Origin: Calditrichia bacterium
Lineage (GTDB): Bacteria; Calditrichota; Calditrichia; JAJRVZ01
Length of the DNA stretch: 64,000 bases
NCBI GenBank assembly: GCA_963765585.1
Contig: CAVXXB010000008.1
Coordinates: 405,111 to 469,110 of the forward strand
Direction: 5' to 3'
Each line of letters starts with the position of its first letter. The first letter of the stretch is position 1. The position numbers were made by a program, and so were the translations under genes. Below, piece by piece: positions 22,131 through 47,037 of the stretch. Below the pieces are notes generated by a model that was given only the letters and a program-made list of their open reading frames with translations, was not told where the DNA came from and ran no database searches.

Positions 22131-23429
22131 TTAATTATTTTCTCTATATGGCTTTTGACTTTTATATAAGTCAATTCGCGGCTCTATTTCTTGTGCCATT
22201 TGTTTGTCCCGGTTTTTTATCGCCAGTGAATGTGCTCTCTCTGCCAGTTGTCTCGCTTTGTCATATTCCTTATTCTCGGCAAAGCCCATCGCCAGAAGAT
22301 CCAGACATGTTGCCGTTTCCTGCTCATTATCCTCACAAATTAAAACAGCCAGTCGTAATGCTTCTTTTCCATTGCGAATTTTCGATTCAGGTGCGCTGGC
22401 ATATATTCTCGCGAGTTGATATGCAAATCGACGATCATTAGGTGCAATTTCCATACCCTTTTTAAAATAATTTATGGCGTCCGCTCTCTGACCCTGTCGT
22501 TTTGAAAAGGTTCCGATATTCAGATACGCATCCGTGGATTTGCTATCTATTTCCAGACTTTTCATTATTGTCATTTTTGCCTTTTCTATATCACCCAGTT
22601 CAAAATAGATGACTGCCAGATTGTTAATCGCGGCGAAATGTACCGGATTAATATCCAGAGCTTCCTTGTAATGATCCATGGCGGCTTCATAGCGTTTTTG
22701 TCGCTGATACACATAACCTAAACTGGTATGAGATGCTTCATTGGGTTTTGCTTCCAACGCTTTTTTGAACTCTTCTTCGGCCTTATTCAGATTGCCCTGA
22801 TTCAAAAAGTTATTTCCCCTAACCTGACACCAGAACGAACTCACCGCTTCGTTGACCATTTCGTAGTAGACCGGGTCTTTTAAGTCAAGTCGTTCGGGAA
22901 GCTTTACCATTTTATTAAATACAAGTTCGGCCTTTTCCTTTTCACCTTTTCTACGGTAAATATCTGCGAGTAGCGCTTGTGCCTCTCTGTAACCGGGCGC
23001 CATCTGCACGGCTTTACTTATTTGAGATTCCGCAGCATCTAAATCACTCTGTTCCATAGCCACTTTTGCCAAACCCAGATACGCATGTGGCACCCTGGAA
23101 TTCGAATATAGAACTCCCTGATAGCAAGCTTTGGCTTCCTTTAAACGACCAGATAAAAGATAGCGATTACCCAGTTTTATATTTAAGGGTGGATAAGAAG
23201 AATCCAGTTGTTTTGCTTTTTCATACCAGATAAGCGCATCATCTGAATTGAGCTCATCCAGTGCAATCGCACAAAAATAAGGCCAGCGGAAATGTTCGGG
23301 GTCAAGAGAATTTGCTTTTTCAAAACACGGCACAGAAGGTTCTATATAATCATGAATTAACAATGTCATGCCCAATTTACCCCAGTTTTCACTTTTATCC
23401 GGTTCAGATTCGGCCTGCGACACCAGCAT
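22131..23429 (-). CDS. Tetratricopeptide (TPR) repeat protein
   Basis: 432 aa with at least 8 TPR-like 34-aa repeats (AxxxYxxAxxxDP pattern). Confidence 0.8.
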   Translation of the reverse strand: MLVSQAESEPDKSENWGKLGMTLLIHDYIEPSVPCFEKANSLDPEHFRWPYFCAIALDELNSDDALIWYEKAKQLDSSYPPLNIKLGNRYLLSGRLKEAKACYQGVLYSNSRVPHAYLGLAKVAMEQSDLDAAESQISKAVQMAPGYREAQALLADIYRRKGEKEKAELVFNKMVKLPERLDLKDPVYYEMVNEAVSSFWCQVRGNNFLNQGNLNKAEEEFKKALEAKPNEASHTSLGYVYQRQKRYEAAMDHYKEALDINPVHFAAINNLAVIYFELGDIEKAKMTIMKSLEIDSKSTDAYLNIGTFSKRQGQRADAINYFKKGMEIAPNDRRFAYQLARIYASAPESKIRNGKEALRLAVLICEDNEQETATCLDLLAMGFAENKEYDKARQLAERAHSLAIKNRDKQMAQEIEPRIDLYKSQKPYRENN

Positions 23430-23925
23430 ATTGACTTTGCTAACGATTTGCTTCTCTGTGCCTGCAAAAGCAATTGCTCTGATATTTTCAAGAATTTCTT
23501 TATTCGTACTATAATCGATGTACCAAATAATTGAAAAATAAGATGAACGTACATACGATTAATAAAAGAATAACATAGAGATAATTTTTAGTTTTCATTC
23601 CATCACCTGATATTTGAGAGTAGTATAAAATAGAGACAGGTCATCTCGCAGAAACCCTCCCGTGATGCAGGCACTGCGTTAGAACAAGAAAATGTTACCC
23701 GAACGACGGAAAGATCCCTGAAGGGATGACAAATTAATATCAATGTCCAATGCCCAAGTCCGAATGTCAAATGAATGCCCAAAATAAAATGCCAAATTAT
23801 AAAAGTAATTCACAATCATTGGACATTGAAAATTGATTTGGCATTTGGATTTTGACATTTGGCATTCTTATTTAAAACTTTGTGATCTTCGTGGTGAATT
23901 ATAGTACTCATAATAATTTCACCAC

Positions 23926-25623
23926 TCAATCGGCTACATCTTGTCCTTGCCCTTTTTTAAGGGTAATTATCTGATTGGGTGAAATATTCTTAAATATTTC
24001 AGTATCTCCACCTGGCCAAATGACGCGTACTTCATCGATGCTGTCGATGTTGCCAAGTCCAAAATGCGCCCGCGGATCATTTGAGGCGCAAAAACTATAG
24101 CCGGGATTTACCAGACGCAGGAAACTTTTTTCTCCCGAATGGACTATGACTTTTGCACCATACATATCCCTTTTCAAGTTGGGATCGATGGCCCTGACTA
24201 TTAACCAGTTACCATTTTTCTCATGATCATTGCGATACAGGCGGGCTCTTCCGCCTTCATTTGATACCAGCAAATCAACATCCCCATCGTTGTCAATATC
24301 GCCAAATACCAGCGCCCGGCTATTTTCAACCCGTGACGTAAATGGCAATGCCTGGTCACTCACATCGGTGAAACGGTCATTGCCATCGTTATTAAAAATC
24401 AGATTTGGTTCGGCATAATGATCCCAGTATTGAAGAGGATCTCTGTCCGTATAAATTTTTCCTCGAATAACTCTTCCGTTCACAATGGCAAGATCCAGAT
24501 CGCCATCGAGATCATAATCAAAGAATCCGGTACCAAAGCCGGTAAACGGCAGGCTGACTGCCGACAATGCGACTGGATTGGTCTCATCCTGAAATCCGAT
24601 ATCACCGGCATTGCGTAAAAAAGTGTTTGTTTCCCCCTGAAAATGTGTCATAAATAAATCAAGATCAAGATCGTTATCCACATCACCCAGTGTTACGCCC
24701 ATACTCGCTTCGGCCATTCCCATGCCATTTATTGCCATTCCCTGCATAAGTGCGTCATCACGAAACGTCCCATCCTTTTGATTGATCCACAGATGATTGT
24801 ATTTCCGGTCATTCGAGATATAGATATCGGGATAAAAATCATCATTAAAATCGGCACTTATAATTCCCAGGCCGGCGGATGGTTTGGCAGCAATGCCCGA
24901 TTCGACAGAGACATCTTTAAAGGTACCGTCACCATTATTTTTAAATAACCGGTCCGCGTATCCCGGGAATCCCTGTGGACCACAATAATCCGGGGCTCCT
25001 AAACGATCGACGCATACTACTGCTGTATCGTAATCCACATAATTTGCCACACAAATATCCAGGAATGAGTCTAAATTATAGTCGACGAAGGTAACGGAAA
25101 TCCCCCAATCGGGATTATGAATACCTGATGCCTGTGTTATATCACTAAAAGTACCATTTCCATTATTCAAATAAAGTGCATCCGGACCATCATTGGAAAT
25201 GTAAACATCCAGATCGCCATCATTATCAATATCCCCAATGGCCACTCCCATGCCATATCCTTGATCCCCCAGGCCGGAAATGCTGGTAACATCCGTGAAT
25301 GTACCATTGTCTTCCTGCCGGTAGAGCCTGTTTCTTATCGGTTCGTTATTGGTTTGTGTCTTTTCATGAATTGCGCCGTTGAGTAAATAAATATCCAGAT
25401 CATCATCGTTATCATAATCAAAAAACGCCGCACCGGATCCGATACTTTCCGGCATGTAATATTTACCATCAATTGCCGGGTCATGCACAAAATCAAGATT
25501 TACCTGGTCGGTAATTTCAGTTAGAAAGGAATTACTCTTTTGCCCCGTATCATTGCTGCACCCACAAAAAAACAAAAGCACATATGCAGGTATAACAAAC
25601 ATTGTAATCCTAAAATTTACCAT
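23926..25623 (-). CDS. FG-GAP repeat + ASPIC/UnbV C-terminal domain lipoprotein (CRTAC1-like)
   Basis: 565 aa. Lipobox FFCGCSN, D(x)DxDGDLD FG-GAP repeats, and the C-terminal ASPIC motif ...GYSFCASNDPRAHFGLGNIDSIDEVRVIWPGG. Confidence 0.8.
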   Translation of the reverse strand: MVNFRITMFVIPAYVLLFFCGCSNDTGQKSNSFLTEITDQVNLDFVHDPAIDGKYYMPESIGSGAAFFDYDNDDDLDIYLLNGAIHEKTQTNNEPIRNRLYRQEDNGTFTDVTSISGLGDQGYGMGVAIGDIDNDGDLDVYISNDGPDALYLNNGNGTFSDITQASGIHNPDWGISVTFVDYNLDSFLDICVANYVDYDTAVVCVDRLGAPDYCGPQGFPGYADRLFKNNGDGTFKDVSVESGIAAKPSAGLGIISADFNDDFYPDIYISNDRKYNHLWINQKDGTFRDDALMQGMAINGMGMAEASMGVTLGDVDNDLDLDLFMTHFQGETNTFLRNAGDIGFQDETNPVALSAVSLPFTGFGTGFFDYDLDGDLDLAIVNGRVIRGKIYTDRDPLQYWDHYAEPNLIFNNDGNDRFTDVSDQALPFTSRVENSRALVFGDIDNDGDVDLLVSNEGGRARLYRNDHEKNGNWLIVRAIDPNLKRDMYGAKVIVHSGEKSFLRLVNPGYSFCASNDPRAHFGLGNIDSIDEVRVIWPGGDTEIFKNISPNQIITLKKGQGQDVAD

Positions 25624-26096: not shown

Positions 26097-29000
26097 TTAT
26101 TCAACCGTTATTTCCCTGGCATTATGCGGAATATCCGAAGTGGTGGATTTGCCACCGGGCCAGATTATCTTAATTTTTTGAGGATATTCCGCTATGCCAA
26201 AGACCTGGACATGAGAATCCTGGGACCAATAACCCGAACCGGTGTGAATTTGTCTGGCCGGACCGGAGTGATCCGAATATATCAACTGAGCAATGGCGCC
26301 AACGGCGGATAGATTCTTATCATCACCCTTTAACCGCACACGCAGACCCGGTTTTGCTTGTACATTTTTATAAAGTTTCGTCCTGGCGCCGTTTTGCGAA
26401 ACCGCAAGATCTATTCTGCCATCTTTATTATAATCACTTAAAGCGGCACCTCGTTGTTCGCCATAAATCCGGATTCCCGACTCCTGACCAGGTACTGCCT
26501 GCAATTTACCACTGCCATCTCCCCGCAACCATAATCCGCGTCCGGCATCAATTCTCGGCGTTTCAGGCTGGGTCGCAAAAAAGTTCTGAGATATAAATAC
26601 ATCATCATGACCATCGCCGTCAAAATCCGACACGCCACAATAAAAAGCCGGGGAAAATTGGGCTTCGGCCGGAAACTCAATGGCCTCAAACGAAGCACCC
26701 TTATTTAAAAAAACGGTATGAGCCAGGGTGTTTGCTGACAAGGAATCTGCGAGATATAGATCCGGACCGATTATACTGCGAAGTTCTGCTGCACCATATT
26801 GTTCAAATGATTTAACTTTGCTTTTTATAAACGGCATTGCCCGTGACATGCAGGAAAACCCACGCTCCGGAACAATGGATCTGATAAACGGATCAAAATG
26901 CGCTTCCACGATATCCAGGGTACCATTATTGTCAAAATCATCATAATATATTTTTAACGGATGATCGGGAGTATAATGATATTTACTGTTCAGTCCCCAG
27001 TTGGTTGCCACAATATCCATGCGGCCATCTTCGTTGAGATCAGCGGTAGTTAGCCCATTCCACCAGCCGCGATATTTGCTCATCCCATATTTTTCAGTAG
27101 CATCGGTGAAATGGCCATTTTGATTCTCAAATATCATCACCGGGCCCCATTCCAGCGCCAGAATCAATTCAGGATCGCCATCATGATCAAGATCGCTGAA
27201 CACGGCACCGGAGACCAGCCCAATTCGTCGTAATTTACCAGAATTTATTTCATCTGTTACGAATTTCCCATCTTCATTCTTTAATAATTCTGAAGATGCC
27301 GGATCCGGATATTTGCCTGGGATGACCCGCCCGCCAACAAATAAATCCAAATCTCCATCATTATCATAATCTGCAAGGGTGAGAGGACCGGTAGCAGAGA
27401 GGTTTGACGGCAAATCTTCACTATGCACAAACCGGTCTTTTTCAATGCGATATGTTTTGGCAACCGGTATCATTGCAGATTCCTCATAATTGGACTGACC
27501 AATGACCAGCGAGGTAGAATTTGGTTTATCAGACCAGGCCAAAACGGCCGTCTGATCTCGTTCTGTTTCTTTATTAAGTAACTTATCAATTACTTTAATA
27601 AAACCTTTGACCCCGTCATTGCGAAAAATAGTCGCTTTGCCCGCTTTTCCACTTGAAATTAACAGATCATCATCCCCGTCATGATCGATATCGAACCATG
27701 TCAAACCAGGACCCAGTTGACTCAATTGATTTGGCAGCAACGGCTGACGGTAAAAGTCATTAAACGCCAGATCATAATGTTCGTGCTGCAATTTCTCGCT
27801 CACATCTGTAAAATATGGATTTATATCATCAGATTTTAATTCCGAGGCACTTTCAGCAGTGGTTTCATCAATTTCATAGATACAATTTATTGACACATTT
27901 CGGATAAGGCTACGTTTGCCGCTACGCCAGATAACTTCGATTCGTCTTTCTGTAGCGTTTGATGTCGCAGCAAATACAATTAAGGGGTCTGAACCTGAAA
28001 GATAGTGTCCGCCACTTTTGACTTCTTTCGATTGCAGTATTTCTTCGCCAAGCAGTGTGACTTTTGATCCGATACCCTGAGTATTTGCTCCGGATCCCCT
28101 GAGGCGAACCGCAATTCTTGGTGCAATTGCTGTATTTTTATATATCCCGGCCGGGCTTTCAAAATTATTAATCACCACATCAAGGTCACCGTCATTATCA
28201 AGATCAGCCATTGACATGCCATGGGAAATTCCGGCGGTATGAAATCCCCAGTTTTCGCCGGTTTCAGTAAATGTCAGATCGCCATTATTTCGAAAGAGAT
28301 AATTATGGGTATCCAGCGGGGATACAATCAGTATGGACCGGCGCAACTCGTCCACAGTTTTAATTTTCTGCTGAATAATTTTATTCTGAGTATCGTAGTC
28401 CTGGACATCATATGCATGTCCGGTCGTTACCATCAGATCTTCATAGCCATCCAGATCCGCATCTATAAATATCGCCGACCAGGTCCAGTCCGATGCATAT
28501 AAACCACTGTAATTTGCAATTTCTGCATATGTTCCGTCACCACGGCTCAAAAACAGCGTATTGCGCATCACCTGGGGCCGGTTATATATTTTTCCGACGG
28601 AAATGCTGGTACGTGCCATCTCGCCCATCTGCATTTTACGTTTTTTATGGTCCCGGCTGAGCATGTCCGCAACAAAAAAATCAGCAAGTCCATCCCGGTT
28701 AATATCCGTAAAATCTACTGTCATAGATGAAGAACTGGTTGTACGGATTGCCGTTCTTTCAACTGCTTGAAAATTTCCATGGCCGTCATTTATCCAGATG
28801 AAATCCGGGCTTGAGAAGTCATTGCATACATAGATATCCGGATCACCGTCATTATCCATATCCTGCATTTGAGCGGAAAGCCCCCAGGCACGGGGTATAA
28901 TATCAGGAACATTATCTTCGCGGATGAAACGGGATGATTCCAGTGCAACCGGTTTAAGATGGCCTTTGCCATCATTGATATACAATATATCCCGTTCTCC

Positions 29001-29627
29001 GGCATCCGGTTCATAAAGCATTAAACCCGACGCATCCATTACCGGTGATTCCCTGTCACGGCGGCTTTTATAGCGGTAACTCACCATATACATATCCAGA
29101 TCACCATCCCCATCAATATCTCCCAGTGTCATGGATGTATTACCGGTCCGATCCTCCAAAGACACCAGGCCCACCTTTTCGGTCTCTTCGGCGAAACTTC
29201 CTGTACCATCATTTATAAAGCAGGCATTCGGTCCGTCCATTACGGTAACAAATAAATCAAGGTCCCGGTCACCATCAATATCGGCAAACACCGCCCCTTT
29301 AGAAAAATGACCGCGATGTGCCACACCGGCAGAATCAGTAATATCTTCAAACTTCCAATTACCCAGATTACGGTACAATTTATTTGAACCATTCAGTCCA
29401 CAGAAATAAATATCAATAAATCCATCATTATCGATATCGCCGGTGGCCACCCCGGAACCATCAAGCAAATGCTGATTACTGAGTATTTGCTCCTGGGTCA
29501 AGGTATTTGTAAATCCGATACCGGTAACTGTTGAATCCGAGCTGAACAAACCCGGTGGAATCGCCTGCGGGATCCATAAGTTCGGCCCATCGAAATCCGG
29601 TTTCCTGATGCCACTGCATCCGGTCAT
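26097..29627 (-). CDS. Large FG-GAP/ASPIC-UnbV protein with two propeller + ASPIC modules (1176 aa)
   Basis: Lipoprotein-like N-terminus (MTGCSG). There are two FG-GAP propeller regions. An internal ASPIC motif (GGHYLSGSDPLIVFA...IEVIWRSGK) and a terminal ASPIC motif (GSGYWSQDSHVQVFG...IKIIWPGGK) follow them. Confidence 0.8.
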   Translation of the reverse strand: MTGCSGIRKPDFDGPNLWIPQAIPPGLFSSDSTVTGIGFTNTLTQEQILSNQHLLDGSGVATGDIDNDGFIDIYFCGLNGSNKLYRNLGNWKFEDITDSAGVAHRGHFSKGAVFADIDGDRDLDLFVTVMDGPNACFINDGTGSFAEETEKVGLVSLEDRTGNTSMTLGDIDGDGDLDMYMVSYRYKSRRDRESPVMDASGLMLYEPDAGERDILYINDGKGHLKPVALESSRFIREDNVPDIIPRAWGLSAQMQDMDNDGDPDIYVCNDFSSPDFIWINDGHGNFQAVERTAIRTTSSSSMTVDFTDINRDGLADFFVADMLSRDHKKRKMQMGEMARTSISVGKIYNRPQVMRNTLFLSRGDGTYAEIANYSGLYASDWTWSAIFIDADLDGYEDLMVTTGHAYDVQDYDTQNKIIQQKIKTVDELRRSILIVSPLDTHNYLFRNNGDLTFTETGENWGFHTAGISHGMSMADLDNDGDLDVVINNFESPAGIYKNTAIAPRIAVRLRGSGANTQGIGSKVTLLGEEILQSKEVKSGGHYLSGSDPLIVFAATSNATERRIEVIWRSGKRSLIRNVSINCIYEIDETTAESASELKSDDINPYFTDVSEKLQHEHYDLAFNDFYRQPLLPNQLSQLGPGLTWFDIDHDGDDDLLISSGKAGKATIFRNDGVKGFIKVIDKLLNKETERDQTAVLAWSDKPNSTSLVIGQSNYEESAMIPVAKTYRIEKDRFVHSEDLPSNLSATGPLTLADYDNDGDLDLFVGGRVIPGKYPDPASSELLKNEDGKFVTDEINSGKLRRIGLVSGAVFSDLDHDGDPELILALEWGPVMIFENQNGHFTDATEKYGMSKYRGWWNGLTTADLNEDGRMDIVATNWGLNSKYHYTPDHPLKIYYDDFDNNGTLDIVEAHFDPFIRSIVPERGFSCMSRAMPFIKSKVKSFEQYGAAELRSIIGPDLYLADSLSANTLAHTVFLNKGASFEAIEFPAEAQFSPAFYCGVSDFDGDGHDDVFISQNFFATQPETPRIDAGRGLWLRGDGSGKLQAVPGQESGIRIYGEQRGAALSDYNKDGRIDLAVSQNGARTKLYKNVQAKPGLRVRLKGDDKNLSAVGAIAQLIYSDHSGPARQIHTGSGYWSQDSHVQVFGIAEYPQKIKIIWPGGKSTTSDIPHNAREITVE

Positions 29628-30011
29628 TACCGCATGAGATAAGAAATATTAGTAAGATGAAAAAATATGCCAGCCGAATAGCAGAATTATTATTAGAAAT
29701 ACATTTATAAAGATGGTTTATCATATACTCGTTTTCCCACCAACAAAATCAGTGATAATTTCTTTATACAAAAAGTCTGATAATTTACCAAAAAATAATA
29801 GAATAGTTTGAACCCTGAATTTAATCAGGGTCTCTCGCATAGACCCAAAGACCCGAGACAAGATGATTAGGTAAGTTAGAATGAGAAGTTAGAAATTGTA
29901 ATGGTAATTATTGCACATCGCCAATTACAAATTCTTAATTCCAAATCGTTTCATCTGCGCCTCTGCGACTCTGCGTGAAATAATTGTAAACAAATATGGA
30001 TGTTTACGCCC

Positions 30012-31652
30012 CTATTCCCGGATTCCTTTTCCTTGTACAACCTTAATATAATGATCAATTCCTGGTTGCTCAATATATTCTTTTTGCCCGTCCGGCCATT
30101 GGATCTCAAGTTTGTCAATTTTCTCATCGCCCCCTAATCCGATATGCATTCGCGGATCATTATAGGATAAATACGATGTGGCCCATTGATTTATTTTCAC
30201 CTGCTTTCTGCTCCCGGTTGTAATTGTCACTTTTGCGCCGATTGCTGAGGCCGGTCCGTTTTTACCCACCAGGGTCAATCCCAGCCAATGATTTTTATTT
30301 CCACCATCATTCCGAAGCAGCGTGGCAGTTGCACGCAGATCCACATGAGACACGATGATATCCAAATCACCGTCATTATCAAAATCCCAGACAGCAGCGC
30401 CTCTACCCGAACGTAAATCACTAAAATAATCTCCAACTTTCTTTCCCACATTGACAAAATTACCTTTTCCATCATTTTCAAGTAACAAGGGCGGTTGCTC
30501 TACCAGTTCCTCCGCCAGACCGTTGGCGGAAAAAATATCCAAATCGCCATCATTATCATAATCAAATAATGCGGCACCCCATGCTCCTTTGCCGGAAAAT
30601 GCGGACCGAACGCCACTGGACGCGGTTATATCTTCATAAATACCATTTCCGGTATTGCGGTAGAGCGCACCATACCGCAAATCAACTACCAGCAAATCAA
30701 TCAGACCATCCCCATCCACATCACCAATCGAACCATGCATGGATCCCGTTGGCAGCCCCTGGTCATTTACAGCCAGACCACTGGCTCTTCCCACTTCGCT
30801 AAATTTCTGATTGCCGTCGTTACGGAATAAAAAATTCTCCTGGTGGTCATTTCCTTGAAATAAGTCAAGATCACCATCATCATCATAATCAAATAAGCTC
30901 AGCCCCATGCATTTTGATTGTGGGTAGTACAAACCAACATCCCTGGTAACTTCCTTAAATGTACCATCTGTTTGCTGTTCGTATAATAACGAAGCCTGAC
31001 CATCATACTCAGAAGGGTGTGGCATCATATCGGGCGCAGTTGGTGAAATATAAGCGGGATCAAAAGCGAGAAAATTCCCCACCATCAGATCCACCCTTCC
31101 ATCCTGGTTATAATCCCAAAAACTGACCCCCACACTCCATTTTGTAAAATTATTCAGTTTTTCCGGACCCTGCAGTCCTAATTGTTGTGCGATATCTGTA
31201 AATGTCCCATCCCCATTATTCCGGTAAAACACATTGGGTCCATAGTTCAGCAAAAATATATCAACATCCGAATCACCATCATAATCAATTGCCCCGGCGG
31301 CCATGCTCCAATGCCGATCATCGACGCCTGCCTGACCACCTGTTTCGGTAAACGTACCATCCCCATTATTATGATACAGTTTATTGGGTGTGTTTTTAAA
31401 AATTAAACCCGTGGAATCGCTGATTCCCTCCAGGTAAGTGCCATTTAGCATATATAAATCCATGTTCCCATCACCATCATAATCCAGAATGGTAATCCCC
31501 GAACCACTGCTTTCAAGTATATTTTGATAGGTCAAATCTCCAAAATTATAACGGAAGTCGATACCGGCCTGTGTGGTAATTTCGGTGTATCGAATATCAA
31601 GATTCTGCGCAAATAGTCCACTGCAAAAAACAATCAATAGGATTAATATCAT
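30012..31652 (-). CDS. FG-GAP + ASPIC/UnbV secreted protein (CRTAC1-like), 546 aa
   Basis: Signal peptide and FG-GAP repeats. The C-terminus reads ...SYLSYNDPRMHIGLGGDEKIDKLEIQWPDGQ. Confidence 0.8.
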   Translation of the reverse strand: MILILLIVFCSGLFAQNLDIRYTEITTQAGIDFRYNFGDLTYQNILESSGSGITILDYDGDGNMDLYMLNGTYLEGISDSTGLIFKNTPNKLYHNNGDGTFTETGGQAGVDDRHWSMAAGAIDYDGDSDVDIFLLNYGPNVFYRNNGDGTFTDIAQQLGLQGPEKLNNFTKWSVGVSFWDYNQDGRVDLMVGNFLAFDPAYISPTAPDMMPHPSEYDGQASLLYEQQTDGTFKEVTRDVGLYYPQSKCMGLSLFDYDDDGDLDLFQGNDHQENFLFRNDGNQKFSEVGRASGLAVNDQGLPTGSMHGSIGDVDGDGLIDLLVVDLRYGALYRNTGNGIYEDITASSGVRSAFSGKGAWGAALFDYDNDGDLDIFSANGLAEELVEQPPLLLENDGKGNFVNVGKKVGDYFSDLRSGRGAAVWDFDNDGDLDIIVSHVDLRATATLLRNDGGNKNHWLGLTLVGKNGPASAIGAKVTITTGSRKQVKINQWATSYLSYNDPRMHIGLGGDEKIDKLEIQWPDGQKEYIEQPGIDHYIKVVQGKGIRE

Positions 31653-38686: not shown

Positions 38687-39808
38687 CTACCTTAATCCCG
38701 GGTAGTACCCCTTACCCTTCCCTCTGGCTAATCCATGCCCGGTTCCGATCCAGATATCATCACCCATAAACTCTGTGCAGATGGTGAAATGGTTTGGTAA
38801 ATCCAGATTTGTCTCCACTTTATCTATTATCTTATTTCCACGCATTACTTTTGCCGTCCAGGTTTTATCATCTTCATTTTCAAGCACATAGGTAACCCAG
38901 GTATCTGAATCAAAATCCACCAGCACGCCCAATCCCTTATCGGTGCAATTATAACTTGATATTGCACTTCTTCCCAGTGACAGATTTATAAAATTACTGG
39001 GTAATCCACTGTCATGATCCATATACCCGCGCCAGTTTCTGCCATCATAACGACTTAACCCAAAATAAGTTGAGGCCCATAATACGTTATCCACATAGGA
39101 TGCGGATGTAGTGATCACATGAACCAGTCCATCATCACGATACAGATCAATCTCCATTTCGCCGTCGGGATCATGGTATACCTTCCAGCTCTCTGTCGGT
39201 ACATCCCACTCCAGAATCCCACCGCCCCAGACTGCAAAATATACCTTGTCATCATTGGCATCGACATTGTAAGTCCAGACCTCTTCCATGGGCGCATGTT
39301 TTTCATTAAAAACCGCCCATTCGCCACTCAACTGGTTATACCGACTGATCCCTGCAGTGGTAGCCACCCATACATTATCGCCCTCAATATCAATGCCATA
39401 TACCACATCATTTAATAAACCGCTGTTCATTTGCGTAAAATGTTCAAAATATCCGCCGCTGAACCGGGCGATTCCCTCACCAAATAATGCCAGCCATAGT
39501 TCACCGGTTTTGTGATCTTTGGCGATACCCATTATTACATTCCAGGGTAATCCATTGGCCTCCGTCCAGCTTTCCCACTTACCATTATAATAGAGTACCA
39601 GACCACCCTCCGTGCCGATCCACAGGCTATCGCCATCTGCTTCCAGAAAGAAAATATGATCATTTATCAACTGCCCCCCAGTTGACTCCGTTGTAAAAGT
39701 TTCCCACTCAGTATAGACAAAAGGAAATCCGGCGTTTACATCCCTATCACTTTCCTGACCAAAAGTCAAAATTGAAAATAACAGGAGGATCATTATTGAT
39801 TTATACAT
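38687..39808 (-). CDS. Secreted beta-propeller protein with two-component-regulator-propeller (Reg_prop)-like repeats
   Basis: 373 aa with a signal peptide. Repeats are of the type WIGTEGGLVLYYNGKWESW and VWVATTAGISRYN. Confidence 0.55.
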   Translation of the reverse strand: MYKSIMILLLFSILTFGQESDRDVNAGFPFVYTEWETFTTESTGGQLINDHIFFLEADGDSLWIGTEGGLVLYYNGKWESWTEANGLPWNVIMGIAKDHKTGELWLALFGEGIARFSGGYFEHFTQMNSGLLNDVVYGIDIEGDNVWVATTAGISRYNQLSGEWAVFNEKHAPMEEVWTYNVDANDDKVYFAVWGGGILEWDVPTESWKVYHDPDGEMEIDLYRDDGLVHVITTSASYVDNVLWASTYFGLSRYDGRNWRGYMDHDSGLPSNFINLSLGRSAISSYNCTDKGLGVLVDFDSDTWVTYVLENEDDKTWTAKVMRGNKIIDKVETNLDLPNHFTICTEFMGDDIWIGTGHGLARGKGKGYYPGLR

Positions 39809-39821
39809 AGTATAGTTCCAA

Positions 39822-42255
39822 TTAAAGCGTCTTTAAGTATTCCATCAAATCATTCAGTTGATCTTTTGTCAGATCATTGGTGACACCATGGGTGTCTTTT
39901 GTATTATACAGTGTCCATATTTCATCCAGCGACGCAGCCCGCCCGTCATGCAGATACGGCGGCGAGGCATAAATATTATTAAGATGGGGTACATCAAACT
40001 TGCCATGGGTATCCAATGCGGATGATGTTCCCACATCAAATTGCTCCCGGTTCGTATAATAGGGATAGGTATGACATGTATTACAGCGATTATATTCAGG
40101 AATTTCATTTCCTGAATTATCATAAATACGTTCAAATATCCGCTTCCCTCTTCGTTGTGCATCGCTAAGCTGTTCGCCGGTACGGTATCTGTTTGGCGGC
40201 CTTGGGATCGTAACAATATATCGATCCAGTGCTGCAGATTGTTCCGGTTTAAAGGGATCAATGCGGGTAAAAAATGCTGCCAGACGCGGTCCGCATTGAC
40301 GTTTTAAAGTGGGATTTTTTCCAGTCCATTTAAAAGGTGCGGTATCATTGATTCCCCGTAGCGTCCGGTTATCAACCGGGTTTACCCCAAGACCATCCGG
40401 TTCGATATCATAGGTCAGACCATCGATACCACCATCGGGATGACAGGAATGACAGGAAAACTGTCGCGCATAGGTATATTCCGAACTGTGAAATATGCGC
40501 TCGCCATATCTTGCCTGGGTAATTTCATCTGGTCCGCCAAGATCGATGGTTTTAATCCGTTCTGCGTGATTCGATATCAATAACCGATATGGCATCATCA
40601 AGGCCGTCTGCCACATATAAAAATTTATTATTCGGCGAAACCGCCATTCCCCTGGGACTTTGCCCCACCTTTATTCGTTCGACCACAAATTGAAGGCTCA
40701 TTCCCAGGTGGTTGGCCATCTCTGCACGGTCTTTAGCAGATAAATTCTGTGAGAGTATGTTTTTCATGGCTTCAATATCGATCATTGCCACTTCTTGCAC
40801 ACCGCCGCCTGTTGCGAATGCATACCGGCCATCGCCTGAAAACACAATATCAGTCGGATCAGCAAAGAAGTCATTAATTTCATCCAGCAATAACTGGTCT
40901 ACGCGACCGTCCTTCCATAAAATCCCGATACCGTTGGTCATGATCCAGCCCTGAATATTGCGGGTCATGGGTACCAGGTTTTTGGTACGAATCAATGTCA
41001 CCAGGGCAAAATGGGCATCAGGTGATACGGCGACACCTTGTATCAGGTTTGCATCCCTGACTGGAATCCGTTTTCTTACCGTCGCGGTTTTTGTGTCAAT
41101 CACTGTAACTTCAGATACGGAAGTTGATCTGAATTTTCCATATCTTGGCAGATTATTGGTGATGTATACAGAACTGCCATCCGGTGATATTGCGGCGCCC
41201 CAGGGTCCGCGTGATGCTGCCAGACGTTTAACCTCGTGCCCTTTAGCCAAATCCACAACAGACACATCGTAGGTTCCGGCATTGGCCACATACATAAACT
41301 TGCCATCGGGAGTAATGACCATTTCATGGGGTTCATCACCAACAATAATCGTATTTATCACCTGGTAAGACCTGGTATCCACGACCGAAATATTATCTGA
41401 TGCCCGATTACTCACATAAGCCCGTGATTGATCCGGTGAAAAGCAAACAAAATGCGGCTGCATACCGATATCAATTTCCCTGAGAATCTTATCGGTCCCG
41501 GTATCAACAACAATCAGACTATTGGAGGCCTCGCAGGCAATAAACAAGCGTTCCCCATCCCTGGTAACGGCCAGGTTAAACGGGGTTTTATAAACTACCT
41601 TCTTTTCATTAACATTCTGCTTTTTTGAGGCAGATGATTTAATTACCGGTTTCGTACGTTCAACATAGTCGTCGTCAATGGGAATAATGCCGGGTGTAAG
41701 TGCGCCCCCTTTTCCGAAATGAGCGATGGCGGCAAACGCCGAATCAAAGTCAAATATTTTTGAATTCAAAACAGATACATGAGAATTTTTTTCTTTATGA
41801 CATATCATGCAATCACGCTTTTGCGTCTTTTTCAGACCTGCACGGATTGCTTTGTCCCGGTCCCGCATAATATCGGCATCAATATAGTCGCTACCGGGTC
41901 CATGACATAACTCGCATTGCACCCCATCCTCAAAGCGGAAAGTATCATCACGCTCCCATTCTTCAACATTATATGCTGTTGTGTGACATCCCAGACAAAT
42001 GGGACTCTCCCAGGGTTCAATATCAATTCCGGATAATTCAGCAATCTCCTTTGACTCCGGTTTAAATAAAACGGAATGGGCCTGCGCGTGTTTTGACTGC
42101 CGCCAGATATTGAATTGATCCCGGTTACCCTGCTGATGATGACATTGGCGGCAGACCTGTTCACCTACATAAATGCGATCAGCTGGCTGCTGCGCACTCA
42201 GGTTCATAGCGGCAAAAATAAACATCCAGATTAGTTTAGAATATTGATTTTTCAT
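39822..42255 (-). pseudogene. Fusion of an N-terminal tetra-heme cytochrome c, a YVTN beta-propeller and a C-terminal di-heme cytochrome c peroxidase/MauG-like domain, split by a frameshift at ~40552..40616
   Basis: The 567-aa ORF has CRQCH, CLGCH, CELCH and CMICH, followed by YVTN-type propeller repeats (YVSNRASDNISVVD, YVANAGTYDVSVVD, YVADGLDDAISVIDIES). The overlapping 264-aa ORF continues ...RIKTIDLGGP...CHSCHPDG...CNTCHT. The junction is in a C-rich stretch (ccattcccctgggactttgcccc). Confidence 0.55.
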
Positions 42256-42441
42256 AATGCAAATCTGATCTATTCAGATATTTCTAAAGCAAAGTCGCAG
42301 AAAAAGATAGTTAGAAGTTTGGAACTGGGAATTGGGAATTAGTAATTTGTTATTGGTTATTAGTACATCTTTTTACTTCTAACTTCTAATTCCAATTCCT
42401 AATTTTCGTCTCTGCATCTTTGCGAGAGATAACCTATCCAT

Positions 42442-43260
42442 CTATTGCTGATTACTAAATTGCAATACTACGACTTCTTTATTCTTCTTTCTGATGCCAT
42501 AAATAGTTCCCTTTTCGGAACGATCCCAGGCGATTCCCTGACCGAATATATTGATCGGTACAACTTCAACCAGATCTAAAACAGAACCTCGATCTGGAAT
42601 CTGAAAGACATAGGTTTCGGGCAAATCATGTCCCGTACAATACAGCAGACTATCCACACCCCATGAACCACCGGAATTACTCATGGGTCTGAATTTTTCA
42701 ACTACTTCCTCCGGAAATACCCATGATTCTATTTCACGCCATTGGCCATCGAGTTTAACCACACTTGTCCATTCGGATCCCTTACCTGTCACATGTTTCC
42801 ATTTTTCATAGTGGGCAAAACCGGCCCACCAATAGCCATCATGCCAGTCAAGCCATGTACAACTACCCCGGTATATGCCAAAACTGAACGAATCGATATG
42901 CTCTAATGTGGCTGCATCCCATACTTCAATTGAACTGGTCATAGGTACCGCAGAATAATTAGAGTGCGCACAATACAACTTGCCGTCAATAATTACGCCG
43001 CTATCCAGGTGAATTATCGGTCCGTCACCGTCTTCCTTCCATTGAGCCACCAGTTCACCGGTTGTTTTATCGTATTTTCCGATTCTTTGACTATCGATTA
43101 CATAAATATAATCCTGGTCAATGGCAACGCCCTGCCGGGCCTCTTTCATTTTAAATGTCTTTATTTCTTTAAATTCCCGGGTTCCTGCATAGGTTTGTGA
43201 ATTAAACAGTACTATAGTCAGGCAGATAATTATACTTAGTGTAAAAAAATGCTTTGTCAT
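42442..43260 (-). CDS. Secreted hypothetical protein (beta-rich, ~270 aa)
   Basis: Signal peptide only. No recognised motifs. Confidence 0.45.
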   Translation of the reverse strand: MTKHFFTLSIIICLTIVLFNSQTYAGTREFKEIKTFKMKEARQGVAIDQDYIYVIDSQRIGKYDKTTGELVAQWKEDGDGPIIHLDSGVIIDGKLYCAHSNYSAVPMTSSIEVWDAATLEHIDSFSFGIYRGSCTWLDWHDGYWWAGFAHYEKWKHVTGKGSEWTSVVKLDGQWREIESWVFPEEVVEKFRPMSNSGGSWGVDSLLYCTGHDLPETYVFQIPDRGSVLDLVEVVPINIFGQGIAWDRSEKGTIYGIRKKNKEVVVLQFSNQQ

Positions 43261-43453
43261 TTAGTCTCCAAACGAGAAGGATAATTACTTTGAAAGATCT
43301 GAAAAAAACACAACTCGTCACGCCCGAAGAACAGGATTTTCAACCTGTATTCATTTCAGATTTTGTTCTTTTGATCCTGAAATCCTGAAACTAGTTCAGG
43401 ACAAGCAAGTTCAGGATGACGCTTTGAATTAAATTTTCATTCTTCAGATCGCT

Positions 43454-45082
43454 CTACTCGATTATTTTAATCACCTGGTTCGCTGATATGTTTTCAAGTA
43501 CCTGGGTAGTACCACCAGGCCAGCGAATTTCTATTTTATCTATAGTTTTCGCATTTCCCAGTCCAAAATGTAGCCGGGGATCACTTTGTGACAGATACCC
43601 GGAACTGCTTACGCGCCACTTTGTCTGGACAAGTTTATTTGCTGTCAACCTGACACGACAACCAATACCATCACGGTTGCTTTTTGTACCCTGGAGCTGA
43701 ATAGAAATCCAGTTTTGTGTGTTTCCACCATCATTCCGTAACAAACGCGGCCGGTTATTCAGATTTAATATGAGAATATCCAGATCGCCATCATTATCAT
43801 AATCCCCGACAGCGGAGCCGCGGCTGACAAACTTTTCCTGAAAATCAGATCCCAATTTATGAGAGATATTTTCAAAGCGGTTGCCTGCCTGGTTTATCAG
43901 CAGCAAATCTTCCTCACCTATCAAACGGTGGGGATGCCCGTTGCTTATAAATAAATCGCTGTACCCATCATGATCAAAATCAAATATATTGCATGACCAG
44001 CTGGTATATTGGCCGCAGGCCGCAGCAATACCCATTCTGGCACTCATCTCCTCGAAGTATCCCGATCCGGTATTTTTATAATAACAACCATAGTCCATGT
44101 CCGGTACAATGATATCGACCATGCCGTTTAAATCAAGATCACCAAATTCGCCACTCATTGCCGAAGTCGCCTCACCATTCTGGCCAAAGCCGGTGCCTGT
44201 TTGAAGTGCCACATCCGTAAAAGTGCCATCGCCGTTGTTGCGGTATAAATAATTCTCCATGGCATCATTGGCAACGAAGATATCCCAGTCCCCATCATCA
44301 TCATAATCACAGGAACTGACACCCATGGCCCGTCCTTCGGGGTTGTAAACACCTGCAGTTTTTGTCACATCACTGAAAGTACCATCCCCATTATTATGAT
44401 ACAAAATATCTGCCTGGCCATGATAGGCCAGCGGTCCGGGAAATTTTTCTGCAGCATAGAAATATTTATAATCGGGATCATATTCGATATAATTTCCCAC
44501 ATACAGATCCAGAAAGCCATCCAGATCGTAATCAAGAAATGTGCTGCCTATCCCATACAGATCATTTTCCAGGCCTGCCTGAGACGTGAAATCCGTGAAT
44601 GTGCCATCACCATTGTTCCGGTAGAACACATTGGCGCCCCAATTTGATACAAATACATCCTGATCACCATCATTATCATAGTCACCCGTAACCACAGCCA
44701 TTCCCATTCCTTTATGCCCCAGACCACTCTCTGCAGTAACGTCGGTAAATGTATGATCACCGTTATTGCGATACAGTGCATTGCGCAGTTTATCTTTATT
44801 TTTTCGGCCGCGCTTATGGCTGATACCTTCGATATATGCGCCGTTCACAAGATATATATCCAGATCTGAATCGCCATCATAGTCAAAAAAACAACAACCA
44901 CCCGCATTGGATTCGATAAGATTACTCATTTCATCATCGCCGAAATTATGAATAAAAGAAATACCCGATATTTCGGTTACATCAGATAATTGCTGATCCT
45001 TATTTTGTGCATCCCCAATATGAATCATACCAAAGATATAAAAGAGGATTGTTACAGTTCTGGCGATACCAGTTAATTTCAT
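43454..45082 (-). CDS. FG-GAP + ASPIC/UnbV secreted protein (CRTAC1-like)
   Basis: FG-GAP repeats are present. The C-terminus reads ...SSGYLSQSDPRLHFGLGNAKTIDKIEIRWPGGTTQ. The likely true start is MKLTGIART (signal peptide) at ~45082, not the longest-ORF start at 45169 (which would overlap the upstream gene by 73 bp). Confidence 0.8.
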   Translation of the reverse strand: MKLTGIARTVTILFYIFGMIHIGDAQNKDQQLSDVTEISGISFIHNFGDDEMSNLIESNAGGCCFFDYDGDSDLDIYLVNGAYIEGISHKRGRKNKDKLRNALYRNNGDHTFTDVTAESGLGHKGMGMAVVTGDYDNDGDQDVFVSNWGANVFYRNNGDGTFTDFTSQAGLENDLYGIGSTFLDYDLDGFLDLYVGNYIEYDPDYKYFYAAEKFPGPLAYHGQADILYHNNGDGTFSDVTKTAGVYNPEGRAMGVSSCDYDDDGDWDIFVANDAMENYLYRNNGDGTFTDVALQTGTGFGQNGEATSAMSGEFGDLDLNGMVDIIVPDMDYGCYYKNTGSGYFEEMSARMGIAAACGQYTSWSCNIFDFDHDGYSDLFISNGHPHRLIGEEDLLLINQAGNRFENISHKLGSDFQEKFVSRGSAVGDYDNDGDLDILILNLNNRPRLLRNDGGNTQNWISIQLQGTKSNRDGIGCRVRLTANKLVQTKWRVSSSGYLSQSDPRLHFGLGNAKTIDKIEIRWPGGTTQVLENISANQVIKIIE

Positions 45083-45096
45083 TTTATTTCCGATTA

Positions 45097-47037
45097 TTAG
45101 TTTTCTTTTTTGGTTCTGACCTTCTCCAAATATGGAGTTAAATCGTAAGGCGCACCCATATCGATCCATTCTATCAGGAGCATTTTTTCCTTCTCGCTCA
45201 GAATATCATTTTTGTGAACCGGCGGTTCGGATATCTCCGATGTATCTTTCAAATGATCTGTTAAAATAATGTCCATTGTCAGACTACTGTTTATTGCCCA
45301 TCCAGGAACTATATATGTTTTATCATCCGCATTTTTCCAGGCAAGTAGATCCAAATAGAAATCTTCATAAGAAAAGTCTCTGCCGGAAGAATTATTATCT
45401 TTTATCGGGGATAATATATGTCCGGATCCATGACATTCAGGAATTGCACATTTTTGCATAAGCATGGGTGCGATTTTATGTCTAAAGTCAATTGGGTTGG
45501 TATTTTCAGGAACATCCGTCAGATCGACCGGTGGTTTTACGATCGCATTTACCAGAATATTGGGCGGTGATAATTCGCGATTTTCATGACATCCAATGCA
45601 TCCGCGATTTTCGTTACCCATTGCCCATGTCCACCCCTCCTGGGTCCGGATTTTCATTTTGTTTTTATTTAATAAGTGAAAACTCAATGGCACTTCGGCC
45701 GGAACCCGCACATGGAAGGATCCGTCATTCTCCACAGGTGCCACACCCAGAACCCTGGCCGGCAGGCTATTTGGATTGATCTGATCAGGTTTTTGCATCT
45801 CTTTTTTTGGCAGACCTTCAATAATCCGGACATATTTTATATCGCCGGGTGAAATATTTTTTCCGGTATCCAAATTGGTCCGATAGCTATCCATGCAATA
45901 GAATACAGCGGTTGTCGCGCCGGGAATCAGCCAGTTGGATCTGCCTTTTGCCGGGGTATGTGAAGTGAGAATTTGTGTGTCAATGGTATGCCATCCGGCC
46001 TCACCATAAATTTTTTCAATTTTATCACCGGAAGAAGGATCCAGTTGATATACTGCAAATTCAGCCTCCTTTGAGTTCGATCGGTACGAGGCAAGTAATC
46101 CGCCATCGGGCATGGGACAAGGGCTATGGTAAAGACCCTCTTCTGCAATAATTGTTTTCCTGTATGAATTCAGTGGTCTGCGATGGGAAACTTCGGCAAT
46201 ATCACCACCACCAGGCCAATTTTGTTCATCCGATTCAATATAGTATACCCGGTTATCATACTCAGATGCATGTACCATCTCTTTGAAAAGAGGCAATTCA
46301 TGATTACCATAATATGGCATCAGGTCGGTGCCATCGACATTCACTGCCATCAGTGCCAGTTTTCCACCGGCAGAGGGTTGCCAACTGCTGAAAACAATCC
46401 GGCCATCCGGTAACACATCGGGAGAATAATCGCTATATAGATTATAAGTGAGCCGGTAGGTATTTTTTCCCTGGTGATCGGTTCCGTAGAGGGCCAAAAT
46501 TGCCCTGGATTCGATATTATTATACCAGGCATGTTCATTTCCGGCATATACAATTTGCGGTGTCGGCTGGGGATCATTCAGATAGAAACGGTTTCCGGCA
46601 TATACCGGCATCATGCAGTCACCGGATGCGCGGGTAATTTGCTTTTTATGGGATCCATCTGATTTCATTGACCAAATTTGCCAGTAGTCATTCTCATTTA
46701 TTTTTCCACTAAATATGATATTCAGTCCATCAAAAGAAATATCCGGATCACAGGCCGCAAAGAAATCCTGAGTCAGATTTTTTATTGTATTACTTTGCAA
46801 GTTATAGTTGACAATTCTCGCACTCTTGACATAACGATCGGAAATTGAGGATATATTTTCATATCTGCTTTTATCGGAATTTGTGTACTGCGGAACCTGG
46901 ACAAATATGAAGTCAATAGTTTTAGCATACTGTGCATTAATATCAGTTGTGATATAGCAAATGAAAAAAAGAATAAGAAAATGCCAATAAACTTTATCGA
47001 TATAATTGTGATTCGCTAGTGATTGTTCTTCTTTCAT
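45097..47037 (-). CDS. Secreted TolB/PD40-like beta-propeller protein with two C-terminal c-type heme-binding motifs
   Basis: 646 aa. Propeller-like repeats (FDGLNIIFSG..., DGRIVFSSW). The C-terminal part has GCIGCHENRE and CAIPECHGSGH (CXXCH x2). Confidence 0.5.
   Translation of the reverse strand: MKEEQSLANHNYIDKVYWHFLILFFICYITTDINAQYAKTIDFIFVQVPQYTNSDKSRYENISSISDRYVKSARIVNYNLQSNTIKNLTQDFFAACDPDISFDGLNIIFSGKINENDYWQIWSMKSDGSHKKQITRASGDCMMPVYAGNRFYLNDPQPTPQIVYAGNEHAWYNNIESRAILALYGTDHQGKNTYRLTYNLYSDYSPDVLPDGRIVFSSWQPSAGGKLALMAVNVDGTDLMPYYGNHELPLFKEMVHASEYDNRVYYIESDEQNWPGGGDIAEVSHRRPLNSYRKTIIAEEGLYHSPCPMPDGGLLASYRSNSKEAEFAVYQLDPSSGDKIEKIYGEAGWHTIDTQILTSHTPAKGRSNWLIPGATTAVFYCMDSYRTNLDTGKNISPGDIKYVRIIEGLPKKEMQKPDQINPNSLPARVLGVAPVENDGSFHVRVPAEVPLSFHLLNKNKMKIRTQEGWTWAMGNENRGCIGCHENRELSPPNILVNAIVKPPVDLTDVPENTNPIDFRHKIAPMLMQKCAIPECHGSGHILSPIKDNNSSGRDFSYEDFYLDLLAWKNADDKTYIVPGWAINSSLTMDIILTDHLKDTSEISEPPVHKNDILSEKEKMLLIEWIDMGAPYDLTPYLEKVRTKKEN

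Follow-up and report, generated by a model that had tools for sequence, protein, structure and literature searches.

CRTAC1-like propellers and hydrazine-synthase-like haem proteins in one conserved gene cluster of a Calditrichia bacterium

The gene array

A stretch of 64,000 nucleotides from a Calditrichia bacterium (contig CAVXXB010000008.1, positions 405,111 to 469,110; here called the window) carries an array of genes for secreted proteins related to vertebrate CRTAC1, a protein composed of an FG-GAP propeller and an ASPIC/UnbV domain. The array extends from 22131 to 48561 on the minus strand. Its other members are two haem proteins, a Reg_prop-type propeller, two orphan solute-binding proteins (SBPs), tetratricopeptide-repeat (TPR) proteins and two cytoplasmic enzymes. 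The region is one recurrent supra-cluster, an FCB-type extended variant of a recently described and functionally uncharacterised kind.

A first-pass annotation, made from the letters and open reading frames (ORFs) alone, had proposed a clustered, co-oriented set of FG-GAP plus ASPIC genes with a TPR protein, two orphan Peripla_BP_6 proteins, a Reg_prop propeller and two haem-propeller proteins. Pfam and PDB comparisons confirm this inventory. The two haem-propeller fusions are indeed present; what was missed is their identity as hydrazine-synthase-like alpha and beta-gamma proteins, which is the key to the locus. Also, the cluster does not end at 45169 as was assumed, the system runs on to 48561.

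The CRTAC1-like genes and all the partners named above lie on the minus strand, as do almost all genes of the window. Its G+C content is even (0.38-0.46), and intergenic gaps are short throughout from 48561 to 35779. A strong terminator-like hairpin at 21968..22005 (minus strand; 15-bp stem with 8 GC pairs, followed by a T-run) closes the array after its last gene. A scan for sigma-70-type promoter sites, of a type ill-suited to Bacteroidota, gave no excess over shuffled sequence in the window. N-termini were inspected by eye: all periplasmic members have signal peptides, and lipoboxes are present in the proteins encoded at 23926 and 26097 and in the TPR-fusion protein.

The haem proteins

The gene at 45097..47037 (minus) encodes a hydrazine-synthase alpha-like protein with a signal peptide, a beta-propeller, an HZS_alpha middle domain and two haem motifs. 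The match to Pfam HZS_alpha has an E-value of 6.2e-21, that to NCBIfam hydrazine_alpha 8e-56 (189 bits; equivalog cut-off 800), and that to PDB chain 5C2V_A 1e-41, or 8e-80 with a profile. One haem motif is a CxxCH (CIGCH), aligned to CSGCH of 5C2V_A; the other is a Cx4CH (CAIPECH), aligned to CAMCH at the alpha-II site. The alignment to 5C2V_A stops immediately past the CxxCH His. An equivalent of the haem ligand Tyr591, expected four residues past this His, is missing; the sequence there is CIGCHENRELSPPNILVNAIVKPP, and none of the 20 residues past the motif is a Tyr. Glu488 does not vary among 26 homologues. In total 620 homologues of the alpha-like protein were found, and 326 cluster representatives at 50% identity and E<=1e-30. 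The family is widespread, not huge.

The second haem protein, a fused hydrazine-synthase beta-gamma-like protein at 39822..42255 (minus), comprises a signal peptide, a tetrahaem c554 domain, a seven-bladed YVTN propeller and a di-haem CCP/MauG-like domain. Pfam reports Cytochrome_C554, YNCE and CCP_MauG. Four of its six CxxCH motifs are in the single N-terminal c554 domain, two in the CCP/MauG-like module. The protein is split over two frames, 40552-42255 and 39822-40616, which overlap by 65 nt, and deletion of one base yields a single protein of 810 aa. The two frames are one gene because the repaired protein aligns continuously with single-ORF orthologs (62% identity over 782 aa, unbroken across the junction).

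The propeller of 40552-42255 matches NCBIfam hydrazine_beta at 2.4e-55 (188 bits; cut-off 560), and 39822-40616 matches hydrazine_gamma at 6.1e-24 (85 bits; cut-off 625). The gamma module further matches PDB 5C2V_C at 5.2e-20, CCP entries of the PDB at 7e-8 to 2e-3, and the NCBIfam families MbnH and MauG at 1.5e-8 and 2.3e-5, respectively. The position of gamma-His144 is occupied by a Trp (PFKWTG), which aligns with the FWDGR motif of CCP. The extra Cys equivalent to gamma-Cys165 is kept (KRQCG). By sequence, then, the proteins at 45097-47037 and 39822-42255 are distant homologues of hydrazine synthase alpha and of a fused hydrazine synthase beta-gamma.

Recurrence of the gene order

An alignment of alpha homologues, used to scan genomes, gave 80 loci that represent about ten phyla: Gemmatimonadota, Fidelibacterota, Calditrichota, Omnitrophota, Planctomycetota, Acidobacteriota, Bacteroidota, Desulfobacterota, Verrucomicrobiota and unclassified metagenome-assembled genomes (MAGs). 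The window proteins were compared with the six-frame ORFs of these loci by phmmer, and loci were counted only where the flank was sufficient. The order that recurs is alpha, CRTAC1-like, beta-gamma, propeller, SBP1, SBP2. Beta-gamma is present in 59/62 loci, the Reg_prop-type propeller in 50/55, at least one SBP in 45/52, and either two SBPs or a single long SBP ORF (more than about 1.9 kb) in 41/50. A CRTAC1-like gene adjoins alpha in 68 of 78 loci, and in 68 of these 68 it matches the window paralog 43454-45082 best. Together with the loci of a metagenome scan described below, the arrangement was found again in 163 independent loci. No further gene family recurs in more than 7 of the 80 alpha loci, and none of the recurrent families is an ABC permease or ATPase.

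These counts bear out the earlier suggestion of a conserved system with redox and ligand-binding partners, as opposed to isolated adhesins: over about ten phyla the core paralog is linked to the haem and SBP genes. The neighbourhood check that had been proposed, for which scattered paralogs were the unfavourable outcome, found the opposite also further downstream, i.e., the TPR-fusion gene and the paralog at 30012 recur directly after the SBP genes.

The highest identities to the window proteins are 85% for gamma, 81% for the propeller, 78% for the core CRTAC1-like protein, 71% for SBP1 and 53% for alpha. Gamma, propeller, core CRTAC1-like protein and SBP1 are thus all more conserved than alpha, which fits tightly co-evolving subunits. 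In a few loci neighbouring genes are apparently fused. Such fusions join alpha and the CRTAC1-like protein (L016 4455-8027, 1191 aa; partly in L046; related loci are cited by our L numbers), SBP1 and SBP2 (L013 12723-15431, 903 aa), and propeller and SBP1 (L068 4703-6997 and L075 13712-16165, 765-818 aa; also L071). Being few and from MAGs they are supportive only.

The CRTAC1-like proteins

FG-GAP_3 together with UnbV_ASPIC is detected by Pfam in five genes comprising six modules. The first-pass annotation had spoken of six paralogs. A further FG-GAP protein considered with them, 12235-15072, has no ASPIC domain and matches in just 3/80 alpha-centred loci. On these two grounds it was excluded from the system.

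The core CRTAC1-like protein is encoded at 43454..45082 (minus; FG-GAP_3 1.7e-45, UnbV_ASPIC 2.5e-24) and has a type I signal peptide. The ORF reaches to 45169; the start is probably 45082, as proposed earlier. The gene begins 14 nt past the alpha stop. Compared, alone among the CRTAC1-like proteins, with the structure of human CRTAC1 (PDB 9ETN_A), it matched at 3.1e-19 with propeller and ASPIC domain covered.

Four CRTAC1-like genes follow downstream of the SBP genes. The one at 31960..35542 (minus) encodes a lipoprotein with TPR, FG-GAP propeller, ASPIC and a 438-aa all-beta C-terminal domain. The earlier claim of a TPR fusion with an extra C-terminal domain holds as far as the domains are concerned; it is one gene only after a base is removed near 33427, by which the ORFs 33236-35542 and 31960-33486 become a single gene of 1193 aa. 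The repaired protein is 49% identical over 1184 aa, end to end, to the ortholog in the Fidelibacterota locus L009. The secreted paralog at 30012..31652 (minus; domains by Pfam), the ortholog of which normally follows the TPR-fusion gene, is 75% identical to its L009 counterpart. The lipoprotein at 26097..29724 (minus) possesses two FG-GAP plus ASPIC units; as claimed for 26097-29627 (1176 aa) Pfam finds two ASPIC stretches, and the signal peptide and lipobox are in another frame (ORF 29476-29724). Similar genes of 1115-1124 aa lie near the cassette in L082, L146, L150, L155, L157 and L121. The last paralog, 23926..25623 (minus; FG-GAP_3 4.5e-42, UnbV_ASPIC 6.6e-18), is a lipoprotein with the lipobox LFFCGC. 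Its best-match homologue comes after a long TPR-fusion protein in L087 and L126. The array ends with a TPR protein at 22131..23429 (minus; Pfam TPR families) without recognisable signal peptide. A TPR gene also follows the 23926-like gene in L087; in L126 the latter stands alone, and in L090 a TPR gene precedes a 23926-like gene elsewhere in the locus.

The term expansion, used in the first-pass annotation, does not fit these genes. Pairwise identity among the CRTAC1-like modules of the window is 23-42%, whereas the core paralog and 30012 have orthologs in other phyla that are up to 78% and 75% identical to them, respectively. Recent tandem duplication is ruled out by this comparison. Because the paralogs share just 23-42% identity there was no recent local expansion; to judge from the alignments they are old subfamilies gathered in one locus, anciently diverged and each with closer orthologs elsewhere.

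Pfam holds no model for the 438-aa domain at the C-terminus of the TPR fusion. The domain is C-terminal to FG-GAP/ASPIC in every one of its 1358 homologues that has annotated upstream domains; several fragmentary homologues carry no annotated domain. An AF2 model has a pLDDT of 81.6, and Foldseek returns weak partial matches to discoidin, APC10 and CBM-type chains (TM-scores 0.15-0.2).

The domain was used for a reciprocal test. A metagenome scan with it gave 80 loci, with identities of up to 68%, and again only loci with sufficient flank were counted. An SBP gene is directly upstream of the TPR-fusion gene in 30/46 loci, and in 40/64 the next gene downstream is the 30012 ortholog. Complete cassettes were recovered from this side in L082, L095, L100, L107, L109, L130, L146, L150, L160 and others. 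The full order in many metagenome loci is alpha, beta-gamma, propeller, RidA-like gene, SBP1, DAHP synthase, SBP2, TPR fusion, 30012-like gene, often with a double-module gene nearby. In FCB-type genomes the cassette continues past the SBP genes with the TPR-fusion gene, the paralog that comes next and further CRTAC1-like genes. The TPR fusion is also found without the cassette (L081, L083, L090, L143).

In Bacteroidota-type loci the 30012 ortholog is followed by an Asn-synthase-like gene (31/83) and a RaSEA-like radical-SAM gene (26/83), e.g., in L082 13746-15753, L083 14372-15703, L130 13358-14698, L115 7054-7971 and about 30 other loci. Both genes are absent from the window. The pair points to small-molecule chemistry.

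A membrane protein of 700-990 aa recurs beside extra CRTAC1-like paralogs (L024 3816-6782, L108 1611-3728), and the same type is found in L004, L005, L008, L023, L055, L090, L092, L094, L104 and L112. It has DUF4405 or cytochrome-b561-like helices, c554/MtrC-like multihaem motifs and sometimes a C-terminal TPR region. Here cytochrome, CRTAC1 and TPR modules seem to be associated a second time, independently of the hydrazine-synthase-like cassette.

Propeller, binding proteins and cytoplasmic enzymes

A secreted Reg_prop-type beta-propeller (prop373) is encoded at 38687..39808 (minus). The Pfam Reg_prop match is weak (4e-4), and PDB 4A2L, a chain of a two-component sensor histidine kinase/response regulator, matches at 3.5e-17. 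SBP1, an orphan type-I periplasmic binding protein of the Peripla_BP_6 / HAAT kind (37085..38479, minus; Pfam 3.3e-44), has its best PDB matches among branched-chain amino-acid and amide binders, from 7.8e-27, with other entries termed extracellular ligand-binding receptor lower. SBP2, likewise orphan and Peripla_BP_6, is more divergent (35779..37092, minus; Pfam 3.8e-23, PDB 1e-7); its true start is probably internal, just ahead of the hydrophobic signal segment. ABC_tran or permease domains are absent from the scanned ORFs of the window, and no such family is recurrent in the 163 related loci.

Upstream of alpha lie two genes for cytoplasmic enzymes. The DAHP (3-deoxy-7-phosphoheptulonate) synthase at 47059..47928 (minus) is of type I-beta, with 1.8e-80 against Pfam DAHP_synth_1 and scores above the NCBIfam cut-offs for PRK08673 (434.6 bits; 335) and TIGR01361 (390.9 bits; 267.75). 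The gene is present in 23/79 genome loci, in 13/67 immediately upstream of alpha, and in many metagenome loci lies between SBP1 and SBP2.

The protein at 48004..48561 (minus), which has no signal peptide, is of the RidA/YjgF fold and resembles the C-terminal half of the FkbO/Hyg5 chorismatases. It matches Pfam Ribonuc_L-PSP at 1.5e-12; the NCBIfam scores remain below the cut-offs for Rid (8e-12) and for FkbO/Hyg5 (6e-10), i.e., 45 bits against a cut-off of 106 for TIGR00004 and 39 bits against 325 for the chorismatase model TIGR04444, the latter over the C-terminal half only. PDB matches are to RidA-type proteins (6e-7) and to FkbO 4BPS (2e-4). The family has a conserved motif, LPASTGIQAR. A Ser may here take the place of a catalytic Arg of the E. 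coli RidA.

The RidA-like gene is present in 44/80 genome loci, co-oriented in 43 of the 44, and most metagenome loci of the Bacteroidota type have it too. Omnitrophota, Acidobacteriota and unclassified lineages have, in place of the short gene, a 380-aa form directly upstream of alpha (L017 8710-9843, L024 8405-9541, L033 8652-9803 and about 15 other loci), and DAHP synthase is then absent. The 380-aa forms score 50-68 bits with the FkbO/Hyg5 model over positions 63-309, the greater part of its length (E 1e-13 to 1e-19). L083 contains a 404-aa RidA-domain protein with Pfam FkbO_Hyg5-like_N. The position of the RidA-like and DAHP synthase genes within the cassette varies by lineage. Varying position combined with co-orientation favours functional linkage over inherited adjacency. 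The extracytoplasmic system envisaged in the first-pass annotation is thus correct for the periplasmic members with their signal peptides and incomplete with respect to two conserved cytoplasmic enzymes.

Sequence breaks and surroundings

Besides the breaks in the beta-gamma and TPR-fusion genes, the 3' end of the RidA-like gene departs from its homologues past GIQAD, probably another frameshift, at about 48030, and the change of frame in the double-module gene is at about 29600. Further genes look split, a GH3 and a major-facilitator (MFS) sugar transporter (52856-54145; 49897-51036 with 51472-52488). Split genes of this kind are also seen on contigs with similar ENA assembly (ERZ) accessions (L081-L083). 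Because these contigs show the same pattern the frameshifts are probably long-read assembly errors and not pseudogenes.

Between the core CRTAC1-like gene and beta-gamma lies a gene for a secreted protein of 272 aa (42442..43260, minus), a member of a widespread unannotated family. It has no match in Pfam, NCBIfam or PDB, and no homologue is present in any of the 163 related loci; it is a window-specific insertion. Over 2900 homologues with identities of 55-75% occur elsewhere, in Bacteroidota, Planctomycetota, Ignavibacteria and Thiotrichales; almost all of them are annotated as hypothetical and one as cycloisomerase.

Outside the cluster, the window has a Bacteroidota-like gene content and carries a type IX secretion system (T9SS) sorting domain, a SusC-like receptor with CarboxypepD_reg, sulfatases, the glycoside hydrolases (GH) GH92 and GH3, and sugar transporters. 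The sole TonB-dependent receptor of the window (190-3045) is 19 kb from the cluster. The scanned window ORFs contain no SusD domain, and no SusC/SusD pair adjoins the cluster. The 945-aa FG-GAP-only protein at 12235-15072 (minus) is adjoined by a NosD-like beta-helix protein (10333-12021, minus); a TonB-like gene is at 15336-16136.

Function

The sequence establishes a parts list with export signals and haem motifs, a conserved gene order, and kinship with hydrazine synthase and CCP/MauG proteins. The stretch 22131-48561 is probably a single conserved locus that encodes a periplasmic multi-haem oxidoreductase complex, related to hydrazine synthase yet distinct from it. Alpha and beta-gamma would assemble as in hydrazine synthase (5C2V) and create two haem sites. 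The c554 haems may link the CCP-like site to the electron-transport chain, with electrons moving to or from it. The core CRTAC1-like propeller could be a structural subunit bound to alpha, and the Reg_prop-type propeller and the SBP pair may catch a small-molecule substrate and pass it to the enzyme instead of a transporter. We speculate that the substrate or a cofactor might be an amine, an amino-acid-like or a chorismate-derived aromatic compound, because the SBPs have the HAAT fold and because DAHP synthase and the chorismatase-like enzyme are co-inherited. The extra lipoprotein paralogs might, again speculatively, anchor the complex at the outer membrane or add variety to it there.

A tentative and on balance doubtful extension of this view would have the CRTAC1-like propellers as integral subunits of a widespread periplasmic enzyme with two haem sites, an evolutionary sister of hydrazine synthase. 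The Reg_prop propeller and the SBP pair would deliver the substrate. The enzyme would transform an amine or a chorismate-derived aromatic small molecule, which would be supplied or processed by the co-inherited DAHP synthase, the RidA/chorismatase-like enzyme and, in Bacteroidota, the Asn-synthase-like/radical-SAM pair. The reaction could be a kind of N-N, N-O or oxidative coupling without precedent outside anammox bacteria. If true, this would be the first biochemical role for the CRTAC1/ASPIC family.

A number of points speak against the oxidoreductase locus proposed above. Complex assembly, electron path and substrate are what we infer. The nearest solved relatives of SBP1 bind amino acids or amides, yet a ligand is not readable from its sequence. 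Extra CRTAC1-like paralogs are near the cassette in only 22/79 genome loci and are also found without it (L081, L083, L090, L099, L143). Neither DAHP synthase (23/79) nor the RidA-like gene (44/80) is obligatory. The fusions rest on few MAG ORFs and are possibly assembly artefacts. Finally, if the frameshifts are real this copy could be decaying.

Several alternatives have to be weighed. It is unlikely that, much as the first-pass annotation suggested, the system handles a surface or periplasmic polymer, glycan or other, to which the CRTAC1-like propellers and the beta-sandwich C-terminal domain would bind with the cytochromes as auxiliaries. GH92, GH3, sulfatases, sugar transporters and a SusC-like receptor are indeed in the window, three of the paralogs are lipoproteins, and the conserved propeller is similar to a periplasmic sensor-kinase domain (4A2L). 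However, glycan genes are not recurrent in the 80 genome loci (sulfatases in 3-4 loci, others in 0-1), a SusC/SusD pair beside the cluster is missing, and the best-conserved partners are haem proteins and binding proteins of a small-molecule type. The resemblance of the 438-aa domain model to discoidin and CBM-type jelly rolls is weak, with the low TM-scores given above. The polymer or metal proposed as target in the first-pass annotation finds no specific support; the nearby glycan genes do not recur in related loci.

Maturation of a protein cofactor is a different possibility, and quite an unlikely one. The MauG/MbnH-like di-haem domain would oxidatively modify a residue in a partner, be it the CRTAC1-like protein, alpha, the propeller or an SBP, and the modified partner would be the real catalyst or metal binder. 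There is a parallel: methylamine dehydrogenase has a propeller subunit and is matured by MauG. The partner proteins of the cluster are strictly conserved and co-evolving, and gamma retains the CCP/MauG-type Trp (PFKWTG versus FWDGR) at the place of gamma-His144 (PMC12758564) besides its matches to MbnH and MauG. These matches are far under the hydrazine synthase gamma score, a candidate target residue was not found among the partners, and the second haem protein, alpha, as well as the SBPs would be left unexplained.

A genuine hydrazine synthase with anammox-like N-N bond formation in a Bacteroidota-like organism is effectively refuted. All three subunit types are present in synteny and the third haem-binding Cys, equivalent to gamma-Cys165, is kept; yet the scores reach 189 of 800, 188 of 560 and 85 of 625 bits, Glu488 is invariant while no Tyr follows the alpha CxxCH (HENRELSPPN...), and none of the scanned ORFs of the 64-kb window (100 aa or longer) encodes hydrazine dehydrogenase or HAO. 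Because gamma-His144 is replaced by Trp and no Tyr is present past the alpha CxxCH, the cluster enzyme, as read from its residues, is not a hydrazine synthase and would not make hydrazine. The same conclusion was reached for its homologues (PMC12758564). A chance juxtaposition of independent adhesin-like CRTAC1 genes is refuted for the core paralog, since the same order occurs in 163 loci of many phyla and the cassette-adjacent gene is always of the same subfamily (68/68) and more conserved than alpha, even though some CRTAC1-like genes and the TPR-fusion gene are located away from any cassette (L081, L083, L090, L143).

Relation to known systems

Hydrazine synthase was, to our knowledge, long thought to be without relatives. 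Anammox HzsABC (Kuenenia, 5C2V) and the window proteins have in common an alpha protein built of propeller, middle domain and C-terminal haem, a beta propeller and a di-haem gamma. They differ in that beta and gamma of the window are fused and extended by a tetrahaem domain, catalytic and ligand residues are not kept, scores are far below the cut-offs, the second alpha motif is Cx4CH instead of CxxCH, and the gene order is reversed with alpha first. Anammox operons are without CRTAC1-like, propeller and SBP partners (PMC12758564), all of which are present in the window. Hydrazine-synthase-like genes were reported in Phycisphaerae MAGs with the suggestion that such enzymes make up a wider family that acts on different substrates (Dalcin Martins et al., PMC10732223). 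The hydrazine-synthase-like clusters are the closest living kin of hydrazine synthase and a clue to the activity of the ancestral enzyme.

With the bacterial di-haem CCP/MauG/MbnH proteins the gamma module shares two CxxCH motifs and an inter-haem Trp motif; unlike these it forms one chain with a propeller and a c554 domain, has an alpha-like haem protein as its partner and keeps the extra Cys of the hydrazine synthase type.

As far as we know, neither vertebrate CRTAC1 nor the bacterial ASPIC/UnbV-FG-GAP proteins, encoded by thousands of genes, have an established molecular function, and we know of no haem-enzyme context reported for vertebrate CRTAC1. The window proteins resemble both (9ETN for the former) in the FG-GAP/VCBS propeller, the DxDxDG-type motifs and the ASPIC/UnbV domain. 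Human CRTAC1 is an osteoarthritis biomarker (PMC8596997). On the function of the bacterial proteins the literature searched offered just passing mentions of paralog abundance. The obligate, strongly conserved position within a haem-enzyme cassette gives CRTAC1-like proteins their first concrete functional context.

The SBPs share the Peripla_BP_6 fold with binding proteins of HAAT-family ABC transporters (LivJ-like, amide/urea and aromatic-acid binders). In contrast to those they come without permease and ATPase genes and as a conserved pair, sometimes fused to each other or to the propeller. From a polysaccharide utilisation locus of Bacteroidota the cluster differs by the lack of an adjoining SusC/SusD pair.

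The closest counterparts are the non-anammox clusters of hydrazine synthase homologues, clades I-III, described by Hagglund et al. 2025 (Genome Biol Evol, December 2025, PMC12758564) from Planctomycetota, Desulfobacterota (Syntrophobacter), Acidobacteriota (Paludibaculum) and Opitutus. There, alpha and fused beta-gamma homologues are co-localised with a CRTAC1-family gene between them and two SBP genes downstream; additional c554 haems are present, catalytic residues are lost, and no function was proposed. In clade I the N-terminal part of beta-gamma bears additional c554 haems, 8 of them or, in O. terrae, 4, and alpha has a second haem site. The core of alpha, CRTAC1, beta-gamma and two SBPs is accordingly already known from that work, without function. 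The window has the same order, and it agrees with clade I in the second alpha haem site and with Opitutus terrae in the four c554 haems of beta-gamma. As in those clusters, Trp stands for gamma-His144, Cys is at gamma-165 and alpha-Tyr591 is absent.

The Reg_prop-type propeller, the RidA/chorismatase-like gene and DAHP synthase did not come up in a text search of the same paper, and the literature searched holds no description of the extension by the TPR fusion and extra paralogs. Unlike the published clusters the window adds four CRTAC1-like genes, TPR fusion included, a TPR protein and the 272-aa gene, and its taxon is Bacteroidota/FCB-like. The extended parts list amounts to a defined set of 8-10 genes for co-expression, which takes in the propeller, the SBP pair, the RidA/chorismatase-like enzyme, DAHP synthase and the TPR fusion with its new C-terminal domain, and to a short list of candidate ligands. 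Cultured carriers of such clusters, among them Opitutus terrae, Paludibaculum fermentans, Thermogutta terrifontis and Syntrophobacter fumaroxidans, are named in the literature, and this makes the question experimentally tractable.

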